Notes: generated by a model not told the origin, from the sequence alone. A DNA stretch of 64,000 nucleotides from an uncultured Ignavibacteria bacterium (GCA_937944105.1 CALDZP010000003.1:19163-83162), one strand, 5' to 3'; shown: positions 54,903-64,000, counted from the first letter of the stretch. Made by a program: numbers and translations.

Positions 54903-55364
54903 ATGAAAAAGTCAACAAAAATAAATTTAATTTATCTACTAATTACAATTTCAAGTTTTATTTTTCTATCATTAACTTTTTCTTTCGTTTTTATAAAAGA
55001 TTTTTACATGATTTCCTTTCTAAAAAATTTTTACGGTCAGATTTGCCATCAAATAGAAAAAAGGTCATTTTTTGTTTTTTCCAAGCCGATGTTAATCTGC
55101 TCAAGATGTTCAGGAATTTTTGGAGGTTTCTTAACTCTATTTCTATTCGTTACTTTCTTTTCATCATTAAGAAAATGGTTAGATAAATTGAACTATAAAA
55201 TAATATTATTATTTTCATTACCTTTATTAATCGATTGGATTTTGAATTTTATTTTCAAAGTTGAATCTACTAATTTCGTGAGGTTTTTAACTGGTTTTTT
55301 ATTTTCAATTATACCAGTTTATTTCATTAATAATTTAATATTGCAACAAGAAAGAGATGATTAA
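54903..55364 (+). CDS. DUF2085 family membrane protein
   Basis: ICHQ...RSF...ICSRCSGI..G, P..ID, STN..R..TG. Confidence 0.85.
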   Translation: MKKSTKINLIYLLITISSFIFLSLTFSFVFIKDFYMISFLKNFYGQICHQIEKRSFFVFSKPMLICSRCSGIFGGFLTLFLFVTFFSSLRKWLDKLNYKIILLFSLPLLIDWILNFIFKVESTNFVRFLTGFLFSIIPVYFINNLILQQERDD

Positions 55365-55845
55365 AAAAGAAAAATTTTTACCAGCATTAGTTTCTGGATT
55401 TAGCCTCGCTGTTATAAGTATTGTCCCAATAATCCAAGTTGCTACTTGCTGTTTATTTGCTCCACTCGCTGGGATGATTGGATTCAATATGTACTATTTA
55501 CAAGTGAAAAATCGAGAAGGATTCAAGCTGAAAAATTCTGATGGTTTTCATATCGGTATTCTTATTGGAATAATTTCAGGTTTTTTCGAGTCTATTTTTC
55601 AAACTTTACTCATCATGGTCTCAAAAGAAAATCCTGTTTATGATTCAATTATTTTAATCCAGAAATATCTTCCTGACATGTATATCCCTGAAACTATCTG
55701 GAATATTTCAAAAGAAATTGATGAAAAAAGATTTTCACTAATACTAACAACTACTATATTTTTTAATGTATTTATTGTTAACTCAATTTTTGCAACTATA
55801 GGTAGTATGTTAAGTATCTCAAGTTTAAGAAAGAAACTTTCATGA
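55357..55845 (+). CDS. Hypothetical membrane protein
   Basis: About 4 TM segments; overlaps the upstream stop, consistent with an operon. Confidence 0.7.
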   Translation: MIKKEKFLPALVSGFSLAVISIVPIIQVATCCLFAPLAGMIGFNMYYLQVKNREGFKLKNSDGFHIGILIGIISGFFESIFQTLLIMVSKENPVYDSIILIQKYLPDMYIPETIWNISKEIDEKRFSLILTTTIFFNVFIVNSIFATIGSMLSISSLRKKLS

Positions 55846-55887
55846 AATTTATCATTTTAAGAGAAAAAATTTTTAAAAAGTAGAGTA

Positions 55888-56160
55888 ATGATCGCAATTT
55901 TTCTTTTTTACATCCATTTCATTTTCGGTTTGTATGTTTTCACTAAAAGATGGCAAGAAGAAGGTTTGGGGGCAGCAATTTTAATTCTAATTTTTATCGG
56001 AATTATTTTTTCTGTTGGATGGACAATTTCTTATTTACTTGCATCATTAATTTTTCCCCCTGAGGGATTCGGTAAATTTTATAATAGAGATACAATTTCT
56101 TTGACAATAGTCACCATATTTGAATATTTCTTTTACAGAACTTATTTCAAAGTTTTATAA
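55888..56160 (+). CDS. Small hypothetical membrane protein
   Basis: 90 aa, 3 hydrophobic segments, motif IIFSVGWT. Confidence 0.65.
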   Translation: MIAIFLFYIHFIFGLYVFTKRWQEEGLGAAILILIFIGIIFSVGWTISYLLASLIFPPEGFGKFYNRDTISLTIVTIFEYFFYRTYFKVL

Positions 56161-57300
56161 AATATTTTTAATACAAAAAGGTCGAAAAAAATTTCCCCCT
56201 GAAGTTAGAAGCAATAATCGAAAGATTAAATAAGTTTCATTACTATATAATCACAATGAAATGACAGTAAGAGTTCAAACTGTAAATCCTTTTTAAAAAA
56301 AATCTCACCTTAGAATCTGAAAATCCTGTAGATGTTAACCCAAATTTATCCACAAAAAAGAGGGTATACCTGAATATTCTCTATAAATTATTTGAATGAA
56401 AATTATATTTAATAAGGTTAAAAAAGTCAAATGTAGATCTAAAACCAAAGTAGGTGACAACAAATATCAAAATGTTACTTCATTGAATAAACAAAATGTG
56501 GAATATTGACCAATGTCACAGTTTGGATATTTATCAGATCATTTTAATAAAATACAACTTTAAATGAATGAATCTTTGAGAAGATAGATTTGCTTTATAA
56601 AAAATATCAATCATAAATAAGAATTAAATGGCAATTACAGAAAACTTTAATGATATCGAAACATTGGTTAAGAAAGTTCGGATACTAAATTAAATCTGGC
56701 GATAAATTCTTGAAATATCTGAAGGAATGATCTAAGAATTACTCCCCGTCTCCAAATCAATAATCAATCAAGGTGATCCGAGTAACAGATCAAATACACA
56801 TAATTTGAAAATCAATTAAGCGAAAAAGTTAAAGTTATAATCATTGGATCAAATGAATAAGAAATTCAAACAAAAATATACGCATAACCAATTTATTGGC
56901 AATTTGGAAGCACATGCAAAATAAAACAAAGATAAAAATAATTTGAACTTCACAATCACTTTGAAATTTTAGTAAATACTGCAAATTGGTTAATAAAAAA
57001 GAAAGATTTATTATTCTCATTATCGCAATAACAGATTTTTGAGATTATCCTAATTAAAGAAGAATTCTTCAATTCATTTGCAATGACTTGCTCATTTAAT
57101 AATTATTTCTAAAAACTCTTTCTATTAGCACCATTTTATTAAAATAACTTGTATTAGTTCTTTAACCAAGATCTTGATATTTAATGAGATTTTCATGAAA
57201 AATATTAAACGAGAAAATAGGATTTTAACAATCTAAATAAGAAAGGAACTAAAAAGATTTCAAGTAAATCGAACAATAAGAAAACATAGGAAGGAATGAT

Positions 57301-57537
57301 TCAATCTTGATTATCATCAGGCGGTGTAATCATAAAAAGTTTAGAACACATTTCTCCTTTGAACTTACCTGTTTTTTTACAATTATGGAAATTTTTAATA
57401 ACAGCATCGAGATCTTTAGCATCTTCAGATACAGAAAAATTCTCGAGAGCTTCTCCGCATTCGGTACAAAATATTATATCAGATTTTTCTTCTTGAAGTT
57501 CAAGTTCAAACTTCTTTTTGTTTATTTTCTTTTTCAT
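57301..57537 (-). CDS. Small Cys-containing hypothetical protein
   Basis: 78 aa; CTEC plus two more Cys; 10 nt downstream of the previous gene. Confidence 0.65.
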   Translation of the reverse strand: MKKKINKKKFELELQEEKSDIIFCTECGEALENFSVSEDAKDLDAVIKNFHNCKKTGKFKGEMCSKLFMITPPDDNQD

Positions 57538-57547
57538 CTTGTTTCTC

Positions 57548-57859
57548 TTAGTTTTTAGGTTCCCATTCTAATCCACCACAAGGAACATAGTTTTCAGTCG
57601 GATGTTCATCAAGTTTTGTACAAAGAACTGCTGTTTCATCAAAATAAAAACAACTGCTACAAAGTGTAGAATTAATAATCGGCGATGATTTTTCTTTAAA
57701 TATATCATATTGAATCAAAGCTGGATGAATCACCACGACATAAATAGAAACAATTCCCAGTACCCACCAAGTTCCATAATCTATGTAGTAAAACAAAATC
57801 CACAATCCAGTAATTGTCAAAGCAAGGCGAACAAGCGCCCAAAAAACAATGTGTCCCAT
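57548..57859 (-). CDS. Small membrane protein with Cys-rich C-terminal domain
   Basis: Two TM helices then CSSC..C..C; GGAG RBS; TAnnTTTG motif at 57905-57912. Confidence 0.7.
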   Translation of the reverse strand: MGHIVFWALVRLALTITGLWILFYYIDYGTWWVLGIVSIYVVVIHPALIQYDIFKEKSSPIINSTLCSSCFYFDETAVLCTKLDEHPTENYVPCGGLEWEPKN

Positions 57860-57945
57860 CTCAGCTCCAATCTCTTATTCAAAAATTTGAAAGCTCTTTG
57901 CTAGCAAAAATAAGCTTAATGCAGTTTAAATATCCACATTAAAAT

Positions 57946-59586
57946 TCATCTTAAATAGATCATTTTCTTGATTTTGCTCATTGCACCCAATTGTAATTTA
58001 TAGTAATAAATTCCACCACTTAAATTATAATCTTCTGCATCAAACACTATTTCATATTTTCCTGCTCTTGCAATTTGATCGAGAACTTTTACTATTTCTT
58101 TACCGAGTAAGTTATAAATACTCAAAGAAATATTCTTTGAATCTTGCTGATCTACGATAGATTGTGGGATTGTAAAAACAATTTTTGTTCTTGAATTAAA
58201 TGGATTAGGAAAATTCTGAAATAATTCAAATTGTATAGGTAATATTTCATTCTCAACTGATGTTAATAAGATGTTAAGTTTACGATGTGAACTTGGTAAG
58301 CCCCAACCCAAACCATTATGTGCGGTTACTCTCCAAAAATAATCACCGCTCAAGTTATACCTTATAACATTTAGATTTAAGACAGTATCAACTAAAGTAG
58401 TATCAATTATTTTGTAAATAAAACCAGAATCAGATGCAATTTCCAGCCTATAAAGATCAACATCAGGAATTGATTTTGACCATACAAAACTTATATCAAC
58501 TGGATTAACCAGAATTGCTTGATCTTGAGGATAAATTAATTGTACCTGCGAAGGTAAATTCAGCGGCAAAGTTTTAAATTTATTTATGTTTGACCATTCA
58601 CTAGCAGCATAACTTGAAATTGCTTTTACTCTCCAATAGTACCATGTTTCTCTAGCTAATTTCACCAGCGATTTAAATGTATCTACTAATGTAGTGTCAG
58701 AAAATATTTTATTTGCAAAAAGACTATCAGTTGCTACTTCCAAGCCATAATTGGTAGCGTTGGAAATTCTATTCCAGCTTAAATTTAAATTAACTGGTTG
58801 GTTTGTAGAGTTATCTGGAGGATACAATGGTGAGGGTGTTGCTAAAAATATATTTGCCTTTCTAATGGCAGCCTGGTAAACCTCTTTTGTGCTTTGATTC
58901 TGAATAAAGACGACAACATGAGAATTATAAAGTTTCCATGACGAATTCCAGTTGAAAATTCTTGTGAATGTCTTTGTTTCATTTGGATTGATTGTAAATA
59001 CTTCACCAGTATGATTAGGATACATCTTTCTCATAACAAAATTATGAATCGGATCTCCATTTGTACCAGTATAATTAATATTAGATTCCACAATTGCAGT
59101 ATGTAACACAAGATTTCCTGCGGGAATAGAATTATTATCTGCTGTAACCCTTATCGTTAAATTACCACCTTGCACAGAATCAACATTACCAAGGATTTTA
59201 ATTTCGAACTGACTGGTAGTTATGATTGAATTTTGAATCAGAACAATCCAGTTACCGGCTGAAGAGGAACCATCAGCAATACCATTTACAATTCCTCTTG
59301 GTACATAGTTAGTGGAGTAATAATTTGTTCGTCCCTGATTTTCGGTGACATTTGCATGATAAAATGGATCATTACCTGGAGAAGGCCACCAAACATGATA
59401 TTTAATAACCGCCACTCTGTCTTTATTATTGTAATTTTTTAACCAGTTATCAAAATATGGATTTTGAGATGCACAGGGTGGACACGTTGTGCTTGTAAAA
59501 ATTTCGGCAAGAACTGTTCTTTCGAACGCATTTAAATTCAAGTGAACTAAAAACAAAAAAAATAGTGCAGTAAAAATTATTTTCAT
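57946..59586 (-). CDS. Omp28-related thioredoxin-fold protein with FN3-like modules and T9SS sorting domain
   Basis: VLAEIFTSTTCPPC, YH.WWP...DPF, YVP (cis-Pro-like), HNFVMRKM, VVVFIQ...KEVYQA; C-terminus QNFPNPFN...KKMIYLR. Confidence 0.88.
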   Translation of the reverse strand: MKIIFTALFFLFLVHLNLNAFERTVLAEIFTSTTCPPCASQNPYFDNWLKNYNNKDRVAVIKYHVWWPSPGNDPFYHANVTENQGRTNYYSTNYVPRGIVNGIADGSSSAGNWIVLIQNSIITTSQFEIKILGNVDSVQGGNLTIRVTADNNSIPAGNLVLHTAIVESNINYTGTNGDPIHNFVMRKMYPNHTGEVFTINPNETKTFTRIFNWNSSWKLYNSHVVVFIQNQSTKEVYQAAIRKANIFLATPSPLYPPDNSTNQPVNLNLSWNRISNATNYGLEVATDSLFANKIFSDTTLVDTFKSLVKLARETWYYWRVKAISSYAASEWSNINKFKTLPLNLPSQVQLIYPQDQAILVNPVDISFVWSKSIPDVDLYRLEIASDSGFIYKIIDTTLVDTVLNLNVIRYNLSGDYFWRVTAHNGLGWGLPSSHRKLNILLTSVENEILPIQFELFQNFPNPFNSRTKIVFTIPQSIVDQQDSKNISLSIYNLLGKEIVKVLDQIARAGKYEIVFDAEDYNLSGGIYYYKLQLGAMSKIKKMIYLR

Positions 59587-59596
59587 AAAACCTCCA

Positions 59597-61228
59597 TTAA
59601 ATATTTGAACTTAATGAAAGACGAAAGCCATCGAATGGTAAAACCTGTCGGCAGATTCCGTTTGAACAAACTGTTCCACCCCTCTCTTTGCCATAAGTGA
59701 TAATAAGAGTATGATTTGTACTAATTCTCATACCTCCTTCTACAACTAACCAATTTTTTCGGTTTTCTTCTTCAAATTTATTAGTTGTAAACTCAAAACG
59801 AAATCCAAAAGTAATCATAGAATTAAGTGTTGTCGATGCTGCTAAAAGATGATTATAATATTTTTCAGATTGTGGAAAATGAAACACCCATTGTGATTCA
59901 GAGATTAATTTCGAGCTTATCTTATCACTCCAAACATATTGAATTTCCAGTGGAAAAGTTGTCAATCGCAATGGTTGAATAGGATTGTAAAAATTCATTT
60001 GATCATTTGTTGTTTCGCTTCTTCTATTTATTCCAAATCTCAAATACGAATCTGAATTATTCGGGAAGAAATATTCCAGTTCAAGATATATTTCCCAGAA
60101 AGGTGAACGCAATTTGTTTAATGATGGAACTAAATCGCTACCTATTTTTTTCTTTTCATATTGAAAAGTTGTTTGGTTTAATTCAAAATCAAAATGTCTT
60201 GATGCCATTGCAAAATTTGCATTGAGATTTACTCCATCGGAGAGATTAAAAAAAGCATCAAATTGAAAACCAACTTCATCATTAAAATCAACAACATGAG
60301 GATTTCGTTGCGTCAGGGAAAAAAGATGTTCTTTATGAACAATCGGTGGATTTTGAAATGGTAATGTTCGGGTAGGTCTAAATGGATCTGATTTTCTTAA
60401 AGGATCAACAATATCAAATCTATAATCTTTGAATTCAAAAGTTACTCCAAATCCTTCATTTGAATAAGATAATGATGTATATAAACCTGAACCTTTCGCA
60501 GTATCTTTGCCTCCCAGACTTGTTCTTTTAATTGCATAAGAGACAAATAAATCTAATGACCCCAGTCTTGACTTGATAAAAAATTCTGGGATGTTTACCT
60601 CAATCGTATCAAATTGTGAAATCAAACCTGGCAATTTTCCTTCTGACCATACATAGTTTGTTCCCAGAGTTAAATTCTTAACAGGAGAAATTTCAATTGA
60701 ACCAGCACGAATTTTATATTTCTCAATCCTGTTAGTTAACAAATAAAGACTTAATGGTTCAAAGAAATTTAAGTCGCCTCCAACTAATTGAGCCCTTAAA
60801 AAATCGTTTTCATACTTAACTCTGATACCCTCCATTCCATTATCAAATGCAAGATTACGATTCTCAAAAAGATTAAGAGAGAGACCCCTTGCAAAAAGAG
60901 TATAAAAATCACCTGCACGAAAATTTAATCCATAAGATTCAAACTCAACATATTTCTTTTTTAGTCCAACAAAATCAAGTCCATATTCAGGAGGTTTACT
61001 GTATTCAATTCGAAAGCCTACTGTTGTTTTTGGAATAAAAATTCTGACATCTGAAAAATTTTCGAAATATTCTTTCTTCTGTTTTTTTCTGCTTTCACCA
61101 ATAAACTCAAAACCCTTACCAAATTTCAAAGAGTTAAAGATAGAAGTAGCTATCTCTTGAGATAATAAAAACTTTGATGAAATTAATAAGAAAAATAAGA
61201 TGAATTTTAATTTTAGATTGAACAACAT
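59597..61228 (-). CDS. DUF6029 family outer-membrane beta-barrel protein
   Basis: GDFY..F.RGL, D....G.R, E.KDY, NPP, E.G.Q, C-terminal YG..RGG.VCSNG.CR....F.G. Confidence 0.75.
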   Translation of the reverse strand: MLFNLKLKFILFFLLISSKFLLSQEIATSIFNSLKFGKGFEFIGESRKKQKKEYFENFSDVRIFIPKTTVGFRIEYSKPPEYGLDFVGLKKKYVEFESYGLNFRAGDFYTLFARGLSLNLFENRNLAFDNGMEGIRVKYENDFLRAQLVGGDLNFFEPLSLYLLTNRIEKYKIRAGSIEISPVKNLTLGTNYVWSEGKLPGLISQFDTIEVNIPEFFIKSRLGSLDLFVSYAIKRTSLGGKDTAKGSGLYTSLSYSNEGFGVTFEFKDYRFDIVDPLRKSDPFRPTRTLPFQNPPIVHKEHLFSLTQRNPHVVDFNDEVGFQFDAFFNLSDGVNLNANFAMASRHFDFELNQTTFQYEKKKIGSDLVPSLNKLRSPFWEIYLELEYFFPNNSDSYLRFGINRRSETTNDQMNFYNPIQPLRLTTFPLEIQYVWSDKISSKLISESQWVFHFPQSEKYYNHLLAASTTLNSMITFGFRFEFTTNKFEEENRKNWLVVEGGMRISTNHTLIITYGKERGGTVCSNGICRQVLPFDGFRLSLSSNI

Positions 61229-61246
61229 ACTCCTCCTGTTAAAAAA

Positions 61247-61741
61247 TTAATTCTTTTTGCTGAGAATGTTTTCCCAATCCTTTATTATTTCCTTTTCATC
61301 ACCAGGTACATAACTATTTCTAATTTTTACTATTTCACCTTTTTGATTAATCAATAAAGAATAAGGCAAGTTTTTACCATTAAACTTTTGAAAAACCTCC
61401 GAATTAGGATCTAACAAAACATCAAACGAAAATTTCTGTGAAGCTACGAACGATTTTACTTTAGCCATACTTTTAGGAGAATCGATATTAATTGCAAGTA
61501 ACTTAAGCCCCTTAAGTTTATACTGCTCATAAATCTGATTCAATACTTTCAATTCAGCACGACATGGTGCACACCAGATAGCCCAGAAATTTAAATAAAC
61601 AGGACCTTCTTTTAATAACTCGTAGAGCGAAACTTTTTCACCATTTATAGATTCGAGCTTAAAATCTGGAACAACTTTTTGTTGACCCCTTAAAGATAAC
61701 GAGAAGAATATAAAAGAAAGAAAAAATATCATAAGTTTCAT
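61247..61741 (-). CDS. TlpA-family exported thiol-disulfide oxidoreductase
   Basis: Signal peptide; PDF.L, LNFWAIWCAPCRAE, LLDPN, LP (cis-Pro). Confidence 0.92.
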   Translation of the reverse strand: MKLMIFFLSFIFFSLSLRGQQKVVPDFKLESINGEKVSLYELLKEGPVYLNFWAIWCAPCRAELKVLNQIYEQYKLKGLKLLAINIDSPKSMAKVKSFVASQKFSFDVLLDPNSEVFQKFNGKNLPYSLLINQKGEIVKIRNSYVPGDEKEIIKDWENILSKKN

Positions 61742-61769
61742 GTATCACCTCATTTTAATACAAGTATTT

Positions 61770-63176
61770 TCATTTCAAATAAACCATTTTTTTTATTGCC
61801 GAAAAATTTTTTGTCTTCAAATGATAAAAATAAATTCCGCTCGGTAAATCACTTTTTGAGGTTAATTCTGAAAAATTTAAATGATGTTTGTAAACTCCTG
61901 AATCTAAACTTTCGAAGTTAATCTTATAAATTATCTCACCAAGAAAGTTATATACACTTAATTCAACAATTGAATTTTCTGCTACACCATAAACTATAGT
62001 TGTGATTGAATTAAATGGATTGGGAAAATTTTGAGATAAAAAAAATCCATCTGTTTGAATGTGTGAATCTGAAACATCTGTTATTAATGTGGTAAAGTAC
62101 CATATTTCAGATGAAGAACTCAATCCAGAAAAACTATTAGCCATCACTTTCCAGAAATAAGTTTTATTTGGAAATAAATTATCGGAGACATAAAATGTGT
62201 CAAAAATTGTTTGATTTACTACAGGATTAGAAAAGCTTGAATCTTCAGCAACTAACAATGAATAATTTTCAGCACCTTGAGAAACAAACCACTTAAACTC
62301 AACAGGCAACGAAACACCCGAAGCCCCCTTTGGCGGGGAATTCAAAACTGGTGGCAATGGAGGATTTGACTTTGTGGTAAAACTCCAAATTTGAGAAAAT
62401 AAACTCCAGCCAGCATTGTTTTTTGCTCGTACTCTCCAGTAATATTTTGTTTGAGATTGTAGTTGAACAGTTTTTTGATTTGTTTGAATTGTTGAATCAT
62501 TTAATACTAAACTGGAAAAATTTGAATCAGTTGAAATTTGAAGATGATAATTTGTAGAACCATTAACCTGTGTCCATTTAAGTAGCGGATTTATCACTAC
62601 ATTAACTGAACCATTTGCTGGTAAAATTAAATCTGGTGGTGAGGGTGGAAGTTGACCTGTAAGATTATAGGTAATTATCATTTTCAGTTTATTTATGATG
62701 TTAGGATTTGTTACAACTAAACTATCTTTACCAATCATATTTTTATTGACGACAATTCCCCCAAAAAAATCCTGGAGAAGTCCAGAGACGCCCGAAGGTA
62801 AATTCCATGAGATTGTAATTGTTGTACCACTTCCAATTTGATATCTTAATTCATGAATTCGTTGTCCTTTTGTTGTATCTGTTCCATTTCTATAATCTTT
62901 TAATACACCTTCACCGAGTTCTGGAATATCTATATCATAACCTACAAATCGTGCATCAAAAATACCTGAGGGTGGAATAGGAGGTTGTTCCATTTCATCA
63001 AGATGGGTATCTATTCCGTTTGTTGCTGTTGGATCAAGTCCGAAATACAAAACCCTGCTACGAAATCCATCAGAAACATTTAATGGAATATTTATTTGTG
63101 GTATTATTTGAGCAATCAAGTTAGCAGATAAAAAGAAAATAACCAGAAAAATATATTTCAGTTTCATGACTTCCAT
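61770..63176 (-). CDS. T9SS type A cargo protein with two FN3-like modules
   Basis: Signal peptide; P.L..P.NG...YYWRV.A modules; C-terminus LSQNFPNPFN...PSGIYFY...KKMVYLK. Confidence 0.85.
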   Translation of the reverse strand: MEVMKLKYIFLVIFFLSANLIAQIIPQINIPLNVSDGFRSRVLYFGLDPTATNGIDTHLDEMEQPPIPPSGIFDARFVGYDIDIPELGEGVLKDYRNGTDTTKGQRIHELRYQIGSGTTITISWNLPSGVSGLLQDFFGGIVVNKNMIGKDSLVVTNPNIINKLKMIITYNLTGQLPPSPPDLILPANGSVNVVINPLLKWTQVNGSTNYHLQISTDSNFSSLVLNDSTIQTNQKTVQLQSQTKYYWRVRAKNNAGWSLFSQIWSFTTKSNPPLPPVLNSPPKGASGVSLPVEFKWFVSQGAENYSLLVAEDSSFSNPVVNQTIFDTFYVSDNLFPNKTYFWKVMANSFSGLSSSSEIWYFTTLITDVSDSHIQTDGFFLSQNFPNPFNSITTIVYGVAENSIVELSVYNFLGEIIYKINFESLDSGVYKHHLNFSELTSKSDLPSGIYFYHLKTKNFSAIKKMVYLK

Positions 63177-63212
63177 TGTTATTTATTTATGCTAAGATAA
63201 AAGATTTATTGA

Positions 63213-63881
63213 TTACTTTCCCGATTTATTTAATAAGCTTCTAAATAATATTTTTAACTCACTTAAATTATTCAAAACAGGAACTCTACATTTATCAAGT
63301 TCTTTTTTTGATTGATGCCCTGAAGAAACTAAAATACAATCACAACCAAGTGCAAGGGATACTTCATAATCATGAACTGTATCGCCAATTAATATCACTT
63401 CATCTGAATTCAAATTAAGAATTTTCATCAATTTTTTGCCAAGGTTTATTTTACTTTCAGCATAAATATTATCAAGTCCAACGATATTCTTAAAATACTT
63501 ATCAAGGTTATATTCTTTCACAATTTCAATTAAAGTGTTTTGAGAATAAGCTGAAAGGATTGATTGTTCGATTCCTGTTTCATAAAAATAATTAAGAATC
63601 TCAATTGCATTTTCAGCTAAACCAGCCTCATATTTTTTACCCTCATATCTCTCCATCCATTCCTTACCAATTTTGAAAAAATCCAGCTTATTTAGATCAA
63701 ATCCTACCCTTCGATAATATTCGACGACAGGGAAAGTAAAAATTTCACGATACCTATCTTTTGTAATTCTCTGAAGTCCATATTTCTCAAGTAACCAATT
63801 TATATTATCAACACACAGATCAACATCATCCAAAAGAGTTCCATTCCAGTCCCAGATTATGTGATTCACATTTTTAATCAT
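63213..63881 (-). CDS. HAD-superfamily phosphatase (phosphoglycolate phosphatase-like)
   Basis: IIWDWNGTLLDD (DxD-like motif I), LSA, K, IGDT.HD, GHQ. Confidence 0.88.
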   Translation of the reverse strand: MIKNVNHIIWDWNGTLLDDVDLCVDNINWLLEKYGLQRITKDRYREIFTFPVVEYYRRVGFDLNKLDFFKIGKEWMERYEGKKYEAGLAENAIEILNYFYETGIEQSILSAYSQNTLIEIVKEYNLDKYFKNIVGLDNIYAESKINLGKKLMKILNLNSDEVILIGDTVHDYEVSLALGCDCILVSSGHQSKKELDKCRVPVLNNLSELKILFRSLLNKSGK

Positions 63882-64000
63882 CAGTTCAATTATTTATTTA
63901 ATGTTTTATCCCTTTTTGATGATCATTGCAACTTCTCTTGCCACATTTGAATTGTATTCAAAAGCAAGTTTTTTATGATTTATTAAATCTATTATCGTTC

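Follow-up and report, generated by a model that had tools for sequence, protein, structure and literature searches.

A conserved tlpA-DUF6029-omp28 gene trio may form a thiol-redox module of the outer membrane in an uncultured Ignavibacteria bacterium

A 64,000-nt stretch of DNA from an uncultured Ignavibacteria bacterium (GCA_937944105.1, CALDZP010000003.1:19163-83162; hereafter the window) carries four head-to-tail open reading frames (ORFs) on the minus strand, three of which, tlpA, a DUF6029 gene, and an omp28-like gene, are the subject of this report. One possibility, which we put forward tentatively and rate only slightly short of an even chance, is that the products of these three genes constitute a thiol-redox module that spans the outer membrane and makes thiol-disulfide exchange available at the cell surface. 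The parts themselves, their predicted folds, their invariant residues, and their co-inheritance are what is observed. That electrons are relayed through a cysteine pair in the barrel, as had been proposed from the sequence in the original prediction for this region, is considerably more doubtful.

ORFs were annotated from stop to stop, and all coordinates refer to the whole window. The first gene (63176..61770, minus strand) encodes a 468-residue type IX secretion system (T9SS) cargo protein. It is followed on the same strand by tlpA (61741..61247), encoding a 164-residue exported thioredoxin-fold reductase of the TlpA/ResA type; by the DUF6029 gene (61228..59597), encoding a predicted outer-membrane β-barrel of 543 residues and ∼24 strands; and by a gene for a 546-residue Omp28-like T9SS cargo (59586..57946). 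The intergenic gaps are 28, 18, and 10 nt, and the ORF coordinates thus agree with the four closely spaced, co-oriented genes originally described. Pfam and NCBIfam searches returned the same identities for the four products, including the C-terminal sorting domain (CTD) of the Omp28-like protein. The cargo protein contains no cysteine. Each of the other three contains exactly two, again as had been noted. The genome as a whole has one DUF6029 match and one Omp28 match, which are accompanied by the T9SS protein SprA (794 bits) and by two DsbD_TM matches, and the names given to close homologues point to an Ignavibacteria-type member of the Bacteroidota.

Conservation of the arrangement was assessed in three samples of genomes, namely 41 relatives, the best 80 of 220 relatives in species-representative genomes, and 301 genomes spread over the phylum. 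ORFs in the resulting loci were annotated by iterated profile searches seeded with the window proteins, and 137 loci were retained after the removal of duplicates. In 126 of the 137, DUF6029 has a tlpA gene ≤1 kb upstream (on the same strand in 120); in 99, an Omp28-domain gene follows on the same strand, and in 102 such a gene is present anywhere in the locus. The co-occurrence that the original prediction had singled out for checking is found at most DUF6029 loci. Because this order recurs in most of the 137 loci and the barrel cysteine pair is retained in all intact members examined (see below), the arrangement goes beyond chance, and tlpA, DUF6029, and omp28 are a real, deeply conserved, and widespread unit. 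Among the 41 relatives, DUF6029 and Omp28 were both detected in the same 26 genomes and were both absent from the same 15. SprA was matched in all 41, and the presence of a T9SS therefore does not account for this co-inheritance. Of the 301 phylum genomes, 80 contain DUF6029 and, at E ≤ 1e-5, 56 contain Omp28; DUF6029 is present in every one of the 50 genomes whose Omp28 match exceeds the model cut-off.

Within the phylum sample, DUF6029 occurs without Omp28 in 26 members of a single 27-genome family, f36, and in two singletons. In five loci from this family, tlpA is located upstream of the barrel gene, TlpA-like proteins with a CPHC motif are encoded downstream, and no Omp28 is present. The CPHC proteins include a lipoprotein form in all five loci and a paralogue with a T9SS CTD in four of the five. 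This exchange of Omp28 for another thioredoxin fold bearing the same two types of export label provides the strongest single argument for thiol chemistry at the outer membrane. The same loci (L139-L143, from genomes G137, G148, G204, G272, and G160) encode a diverged DUF6029 protein of ∼505 residues with the motif GGPACTSGICYE, and it is the CPHC pair that stands in the place of Omp28.

The Omp28-like protein was matched by PF11551 with an E-value of 6.5e-18 (65.6 bits against a cut-off of 34.9). The family models used were PF11551 and NF033782; the NCBIfam models lipoprot_Omp28 (53.8 bits versus 150) and Omp28_seleno (58.5 versus 200) both scored under their cut-offs. Its layout comprises a signal peptide, a head formed by a thioredoxin fold and a β-sandwich, two FN3/Ig-like repeats, and a type A CTD. 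The CTD (residues 459-543; 57958..58212, minus strand) was recognized by Por_Secre_tail (PF18962; 31.1 bits versus 27) and by TIGR04183 (25.3 versus 23). Both this protein and the first cargo thus have the character of T9SS type A cargo, in a genome that encodes SprA. In the model of the head (residues 22-250; 58837..59523, minus strand; pLDDT 92.6), a strand at residues 25-31 precedes helix 36-51, which is opened by the two cysteines of the C35-P-P-C38 (TCPPC) motif, and P96 stands immediately ahead of strand 97-100. C35, C38, and P96 are invariant among 56 aligned Omp28 domains; the tripeptide YVP, earlier likened to a cis-proline motif, contains this P96. With a CxxC at the N terminus of helix 1 and a cis-Pro-type loop, the modelled head has the features expected of a thioredoxin-fold oxidoreductase.

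A search of the Protein Data Bank with the single head sequence gave no match below an E-value of 0.27, and a profile search was needed. The Omp28 profile matched 2r2c (9.6e-14), 2axo (5.7e-10), and 5y1a (5.8e-8). By structure, the closest solved fold to the modelled head was HBP35 of Porphyromonas gingivalis (5y1a; E-value 1.2e-13, TMq 0.74, identity 15%), followed by a DUF1223 protein (2axo) and a crystallized Omp28 fragment. HBP35 resembles the window protein in having an N-terminal CxxC thioredoxin domain, a β-sandwich, and a T9SS CTD, but the sequence similarity is weak, as the identity indicates, and the window protein has two additional FN3-like repeats.

A T9SS tag marks a protein as surface-located or secreted. 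Among 112 non-redundant Omp28-domain ORFs in the loci, 52 carry a T9SS CTD, 53 carry a lipobox, and 7 are broken, and a CxxC is present in 109. The lipobox cysteine mostly precedes E or D, with ESND following in 20 ORFs, and acidic residues at this position are reminiscent of the signal for lipoprotein export in Bacteroidota. The lipoprotein forms of Omp28 may also be exposed at the surface. Together, the modelled fold, the invariant C35, C38, and P96, and the CTD support the view, first raised in the original prediction, that the Omp28-like protein is a thioredoxin fold with CxxC and cis-Pro elements directed to the cell surface.

DUF6029 is confidently predicted from its model to be a large outer-membrane barrel of the usual topology. 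The window protein was matched by PF19494 with an E-value of 2.8e-38 (132.3 bits against a cut-off of 27), its residues 48-542 covering profile positions 49-537 of 538, and this was the sole Pfam hit of the barrel. The family is large, with 1,392 sequence clusters at E ≤ 1e-10. An AlphaFold2 model based on a 62-sequence alignment (pLDDT 93.0, pTM 0.87) contains 24 long strands, whose connections alternate between 2-7 residues and 2-47 residues; counted in the model from the signal peptide, the former would be periplasmic turns and the latter extracellular loops. The modelled barrel is closed and antiparallel, has an even number of strands and short periplasmic turns, and ends in a hydrophobic residue (...LSSNI), as is characteristic of outer-membrane barrels. 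Its best fold matches were the 24-strand ushers FimD/PapC and 22-strand TonB-dependent barrels (E-value ∼1e-9, TM ∼0.45), and the matches as a whole are to generic large barrels (TM ∼0.4-0.5), with AlgE at rank 32. The model and its matches to solved outer-membrane barrels bear out the earlier description of this protein as a β-barrel. The ushers and TonB-dependent transporters are of similar barrel size but share only 7-10% identity with DUF6029, which lacks a plug, a TonB box, and the periplasmic domains of ushers.

Of all the barrel loops, that formed by residues 271-317 (60278..60418, minus strand; QNPPIVHKEH...DFNDEVG) is both the longest and the best conserved. By topology it would be extracellular or lumenal, and it contains no regular strands in the model. 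Residues Q292, P295, K299, H301, R308, P310, H311, N316, D317, and E318 are nearly invariant, and a role for the loop in metal binding, ligand binding, or catalysis is conceivable. Both sequence patterns chosen for the related-locus search derive from this loop. The remaining strongly conserved stretches of the barrel would, by topology, likewise be long extracellular loops.

The two cysteines of the barrel form the C521-S-N-G-I-C526 motif (codons 59668..59651, minus strand) at the tip of the hairpin between the penultimate and last strands, which is the last extracellular loop by topology. Both the coordinates and the model agree with the earlier placement of CSNGIC at 59651-59668, in the loop preceding the final strand. 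DSSP assigned strands at 518-522 and 525-529 around N523-G524, with C521 and C526 opposed one step from the two-residue turn. A C-terminal motif derived in the present analysis, rather than taken from a curated source, reads RGGxxCxxGxC[RKQY], and the corresponding window sequence is ERGGTVCSNGICR. The C-x4-C pair was kept in 61 of 62 aligned sequences, in 136 of the 137 loci, and in 140 of 143 further DUF6029 cluster representatives with a mutual identity of <50%. All exceptions were frameshifted, broken, or truncated sequences, and the pair, whose conservation the original prediction had named as a check, was kept in every intact member examined. It is a family-wide invariant. The central residues of the motif among the representatives were GG in 74, NG in 50, SG in 15, and TG in 1, and in 76 of the 143 the hairpin cysteines are the only ones in the protein.

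The window TlpA was matched by the Pfam families AhpC-TSA (1.3e-24, 86.9 bits) and Redoxin (5.8e-21, 75.3 bits), and its sole two cysteines form the active site C57-A-P-C60 (WCAPC; 61562..61573, minus strand). Among solved structures, the best match was ResA (1st9, 5.3e-22). With a thioredoxin-like fold of the AhpC-TSA/Redoxin type, a WCxxC motif, and an export signal (a signal peptide assigned by eye), the protein has the features of the TlpA/ResA/CcmG group. It scored below the NCBIfam equivalog cut-offs for the ResA subfamily (100.1 versus 170), TlpA (58.9 versus 230), and DsbE (41.2 versus 123), and on sequence grounds it belongs to the ResA-like family and is not an equivalog of any named enzyme. 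The two DsbD_TM matches in the genome provide candidates for the membrane electron donors on which the earlier proposal relied.

These parts can be assembled into a minimal scheme in which a DsbD/CcdA-type protein would recharge soluble periplasmic TlpA. TlpA would then supply the reducing power, the thioredoxin at the surface would be its sink, and the barrel would link the two. The Omp28-like enzyme would operate on the outer face, which it would reach via the T9SS in this bacterium and as a lipoprotein in many relatives. We infer the localization of the parts, their physical contact, the outward direction of electron flow, and the nature of the substrate. That the trio acts as a thiol-based conduit of reducing power, with TlpA reducing surface thioredoxins either inside the barrel or via the cysteine hairpin, appears possible but falls somewhat below an even chance. 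If the barrel acts as a sheath, the two redoxins would meet within a barrel of usher size, in the way that MtrB lets MtrA meet MtrC. If instead it takes part in a relay, the invariant cysteine hairpin would be the intermediate carrier, like the β-hairpin cysteine pair with which DsbD's N-terminal domain passes electrons between thioredoxin folds. Such a module would ultimately keep surface thioredoxins of the HBP35/Omp28 type reduced for extracellular or surface substrates.

The inner part of this scheme resembles the cascades that run from DsbD/CcdA to TlpA/ResA/CcmG, in that the window TlpA belongs to the same thioredoxin-fold group and DsbD_TM proteins are encoded in the genome. Electron transfer in DsbD switches back and forth between thioredoxin folds and a β-hairpin cysteine pair in an all-β N-terminal domain, and the proposed order of TlpA, barrel hairpin, and Omp28 would repeat this alternation. 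By contrast, the known cascades end in the periplasm and are not known to include a barrel in the outer membrane or an acceptor at the surface. The membrane domain of DsbD is also helical with a cysteine pair in mid-membrane, whereas the model places the DUF6029 cysteines on the outer rim of a β-barrel. As modelled, a single cysteine pair in that position cannot alone bridge the membrane as the mid-membrane pair of DsbD does.

The layout of the trio has an analogue, in layout only, in MtrCAB, the porin-cytochrome conduit of Shewanella. Both would combine a redox protein in the periplasm, a large barrel acting as a sheath in the outer membrane, and a surface redox protein. However, MtrCAB is heme-based rather than thiol-based, no sequence or family relation to the trio exists, and the trio includes no cytochrome gene.

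A counterpart may be present in the genetically tractable P. gingivalis, beside the T9SS regulator gene porA; in this species PG2172 is PorA, PG2173 the Omp28 lipoprotein, PG2174 an uncharacterized vesicle protein, and PG2175 a thioredoxin-domain protein. The window TlpA matched 2m72 (5e-17), the structure of the thioredoxin-like PG2175 protein, and the structure 2r2c matched by the Omp28 profile (9.6e-14, as above) is that of PG2173. The two loci differ in that the P. gingivalis Omp28 is a lipoprotein whereas the window protein carries a CTD, and in that no PorA-like gene was recognized in the window. To our knowledge, only porA among the genes PG2172-PG2175 has a described function.

Searches of the literature on Omp28, HBP35, the P. 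gingivalis locus tags, and outer-membrane thioredoxins found no description of the trio or its function. In the accessible portions of the literature on surface thioredoxins, no route was found by which such enzymes would be re-reduced outside the outer membrane. Three genes with three invariant cysteine pairs represent a testable candidate for such a route. If the conduit exists, it would be a new means of moving reducing power across the bacterial outer membrane and a sulfur counterpart of the porin-cytochrome conduits, and it would account for the continued activity of thioredoxins such as HBP35 and Omp28 outside the cell, whether they are exported by the T9SS or as lipoproteins. If the conduit proves wrong, the trio would still offer a route to the function of DUF6029 and Omp28, two widespread families that lack one.

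Several observations weigh against a module of this kind. An adjacent tlpA was missing from 11 of the 137 loci, in two of which the flank was too short to tell. In 30 loci no thioredoxin-fold partner was found beside the barrel gene in the available flank, which was <500 nt in 4 of them; in many of the 30, RNase G, dnaN, and recF come after the barrel gene, and three of the genomes concerned (G016, G028, and G038) have 3 to 7 Omp28 matches elsewhere. The sampled genomes are also interrelated, and the counts given above overstate the independence of the observations. By strand parity in the model, the last hairpin carries the cysteine pair at its extracellular tip, across the membrane from TlpA. 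Because of this position, C521 and C526 are beyond the direct reach of periplasmic TlpA, which in the modelled topology could approach them only via the lumen. The pair also flanks a GG, NG, or SG turn, and in the model it looks like a purely structural cross-strand disulfide. In addition, no selenocysteine, which would mark the pair as catalytic, was found at the barrel cysteine codons in these one-phylum samples. The prediction of a complex between DUF6029 (residues 24-543) and the Omp28 head (residues 22-259), run with alignments and without controls, gave scores of 0.62, 0.22, and 0.01, and the median of 0.22 against a mark of 0.32 speaks neither for nor against binding.

Some of these points are shared by an explanation that we consider unlikely, although it is the best placed of the alternatives, in which the C-x4-C pair is a permanent staple of the last hairpin and the barrel anchors Omp28-type surface proteins in the outer membrane, provides their docking site, or assists their assembly, akin to barrel-lipoprotein pairs such as LptD/LptE. 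TlpA would then keep the CxxC of the partner or the barrel cysteines in the right state during periplasmic transit, and no electrons would cross the outer membrane. A cysteine pair around an x-G turn between short strands is the classic position of a cross-strand staple, and the absence of selenocysteine replacement from an otherwise invariant pair in the sequences examined fits this account. So does the strict co-inheritance of Omp28 with the barrel, a pairing that runs deeper than that with tlpA, given that Omp28 is present and tlpA not adjacent in seven loci (L002, L003, L116, L124, L126, L129, and L134). However, consecutive cysteines would oxidize correctly without a dedicated reductase, yet tlpA adjoins the barrel gene in 126 of the 137 loci, and the T9SS-exported forms of Omp28 (52 of 112) need no second barrel for export. 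The exchange of Omp28 for an unrelated thioredoxin fold in family f36 also favors a redox role over a specific docking surface.

The resemblance to HBP35 and the conserved barrel loop raise an explanation that we regard as improbable, namely reductive nutrient capture. The surface protein would bind or reduce an extracellular nutrient, for example heme, a metal, or a compound containing a disulfide or selenium, the barrel would be the uptake channel with its conserved His/Asp/Glu loop as the specificity site, and TlpA would handle cargo or proteins in the periplasm. According to the HBP35 study (PMC2907840), HBP35 is a T9SS cargo located on surface polysaccharide, its reduction of insulin in vitro requires C48 and C51, and it binds hemin and supports growth when hemin is scarce. 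This protein is the closest solved fold to the Omp28 head, and the barrel itself, with its strongly conserved K/H/H/D/E loop, is as large as those of TonB-dependent transporters. A 2026 preprint on Muribaculaceae (PMC13404670) describes T9SS-tagged and lipoprotein thioredoxins and guesses at surface protection or iron-related roles for them. On the other hand, the barrel, for which DUF6029 is the only Pfam hit, showed neither a TonB box nor a plug domain, and the conserved neighbors of the trio include no genes for transporters, heme, or metals. Omp28 moreover has the invariant residues of a thiol oxidoreductase.

That DUF6029 is a Wzi/AlgE-like channel for polysaccharide export, with the redox genes as unrelated neighbors, is very improbable: an HHpred link between barrel-only Wzi homologues and DUF6029 has been reported and AlgE is among the fold matches (at rank 32), but these are generic large-barrel matches, the conserved context consists of two thioredoxin-fold genes rather than polysaccharide genes, and the co-inheritance of Omp28 would be left unexplained. 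The link comes from the one work that a full-text search found to name DUF6029 (PMC9603273), and it underlies the only published suggestion for the family. The neighbors found in the 137 loci, either with the four query profiles or as ORFs, were tlpA, omp28, genes for CTD proteins, a HAD hydrolase gene, and RNase G/dnaN/recF; no linkage to OPX, Wzx/Wzy, or synthase genes was seen, although models of polysaccharide genes were not run on the flanks.

The original prediction had grouped the first cargo gene with the other three. The core of tlpA, DUF6029, and omp28 withstood comparison with the other loci, whereas the first cargo appears to be a genus-level addition; lacking cysteines and being conserved at the level of the genus only, it was rejected as part of a single functional unit. 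This protein was matched by fn3, Por_Secre_tail (31.1 bits versus 27), and TIGR04183 (35.8 versus 23), and it consists of an N-terminal head without a family, two FN3-like repeats, and a CTD. The head was found only in loci of the same genus or family (L029-L035). Searches of the first-cargo head against the Protein Data Bank gave matches to FN3 repeats only, and its protein-atlas matches scored <0.9 and belonged to no family. The head corresponds to residues 1-175, and the FN3 stalk and CTD that follow it are similar to their counterparts in the Omp28-like protein, which gives the impression of a scaffold common to both.

A scan of positions 57300-64000 for promoters and terminators returned 35 promoter-like sites (32.9 expected) together with 3 that resembled terminators (2.5 expected), values that are uninformative on the limits of the operon. 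No RNA dataset was listed as containing the 5.2-kb stretch, which is contained in five DNA metagenome runs from two studies.

In-frame TGA codons were encountered at several loci. Omp28-family matches at G016:C2:133186-133602, G233:C14:27926-28342, and G130:C41:85208-85687 each contain one, and these may be selenocysteine forms or broken genes; NCBIfam includes a model named "Omp28-related selenoprotein." A candidate selenocysteine near the omp28 gene of L133 was rejected, the TGA preceding the start codon of the gene. Selenocysteine at the barrel cysteines of L139 (G137) was likewise rejected, as the TGA falls mid-gene and not at the cysteine motif. In that locus (G137:C1, 2504-4042), the DUF6029 frame is broken by this single TGA, and a pseudogene or a sequencing error is possible.

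A different gene order was seen in a higher-GC clade (L014, L016, L020, L058, L060, L061, L066, L082, L092, L097, L098, and L106), in which a gene for a HAD-like hydrolase is followed by tlpA, DUF6029, RNase G, dnaN, and recF, and Omp28 is not adjacent. Several of these loci encode a CTD protein of >1,100 residues slightly farther upstream. A linkage between the trio and HAD hydrolases was considered and rejected, the HAD genes upstream in the window and in this distant clade being not detectably of the same family.

Two further features were noted in the flanks within the window. An ORF of 103 residues (57548-57859, minus strand), located 86 nt 3′ of omp28, has a hydrophobic N-terminal half and a four-cysteine tail (CSSC...C...C). 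It gave no Pfam or NCBIfam hit and is kept at the same position only in three loci of the same genus (L029, L030, and L035). On the plus strand, upstream of the region, positions 54903-56160 hold a run of three small ORFs (153, 162, and 90 residues) with hydrophobic stretches.

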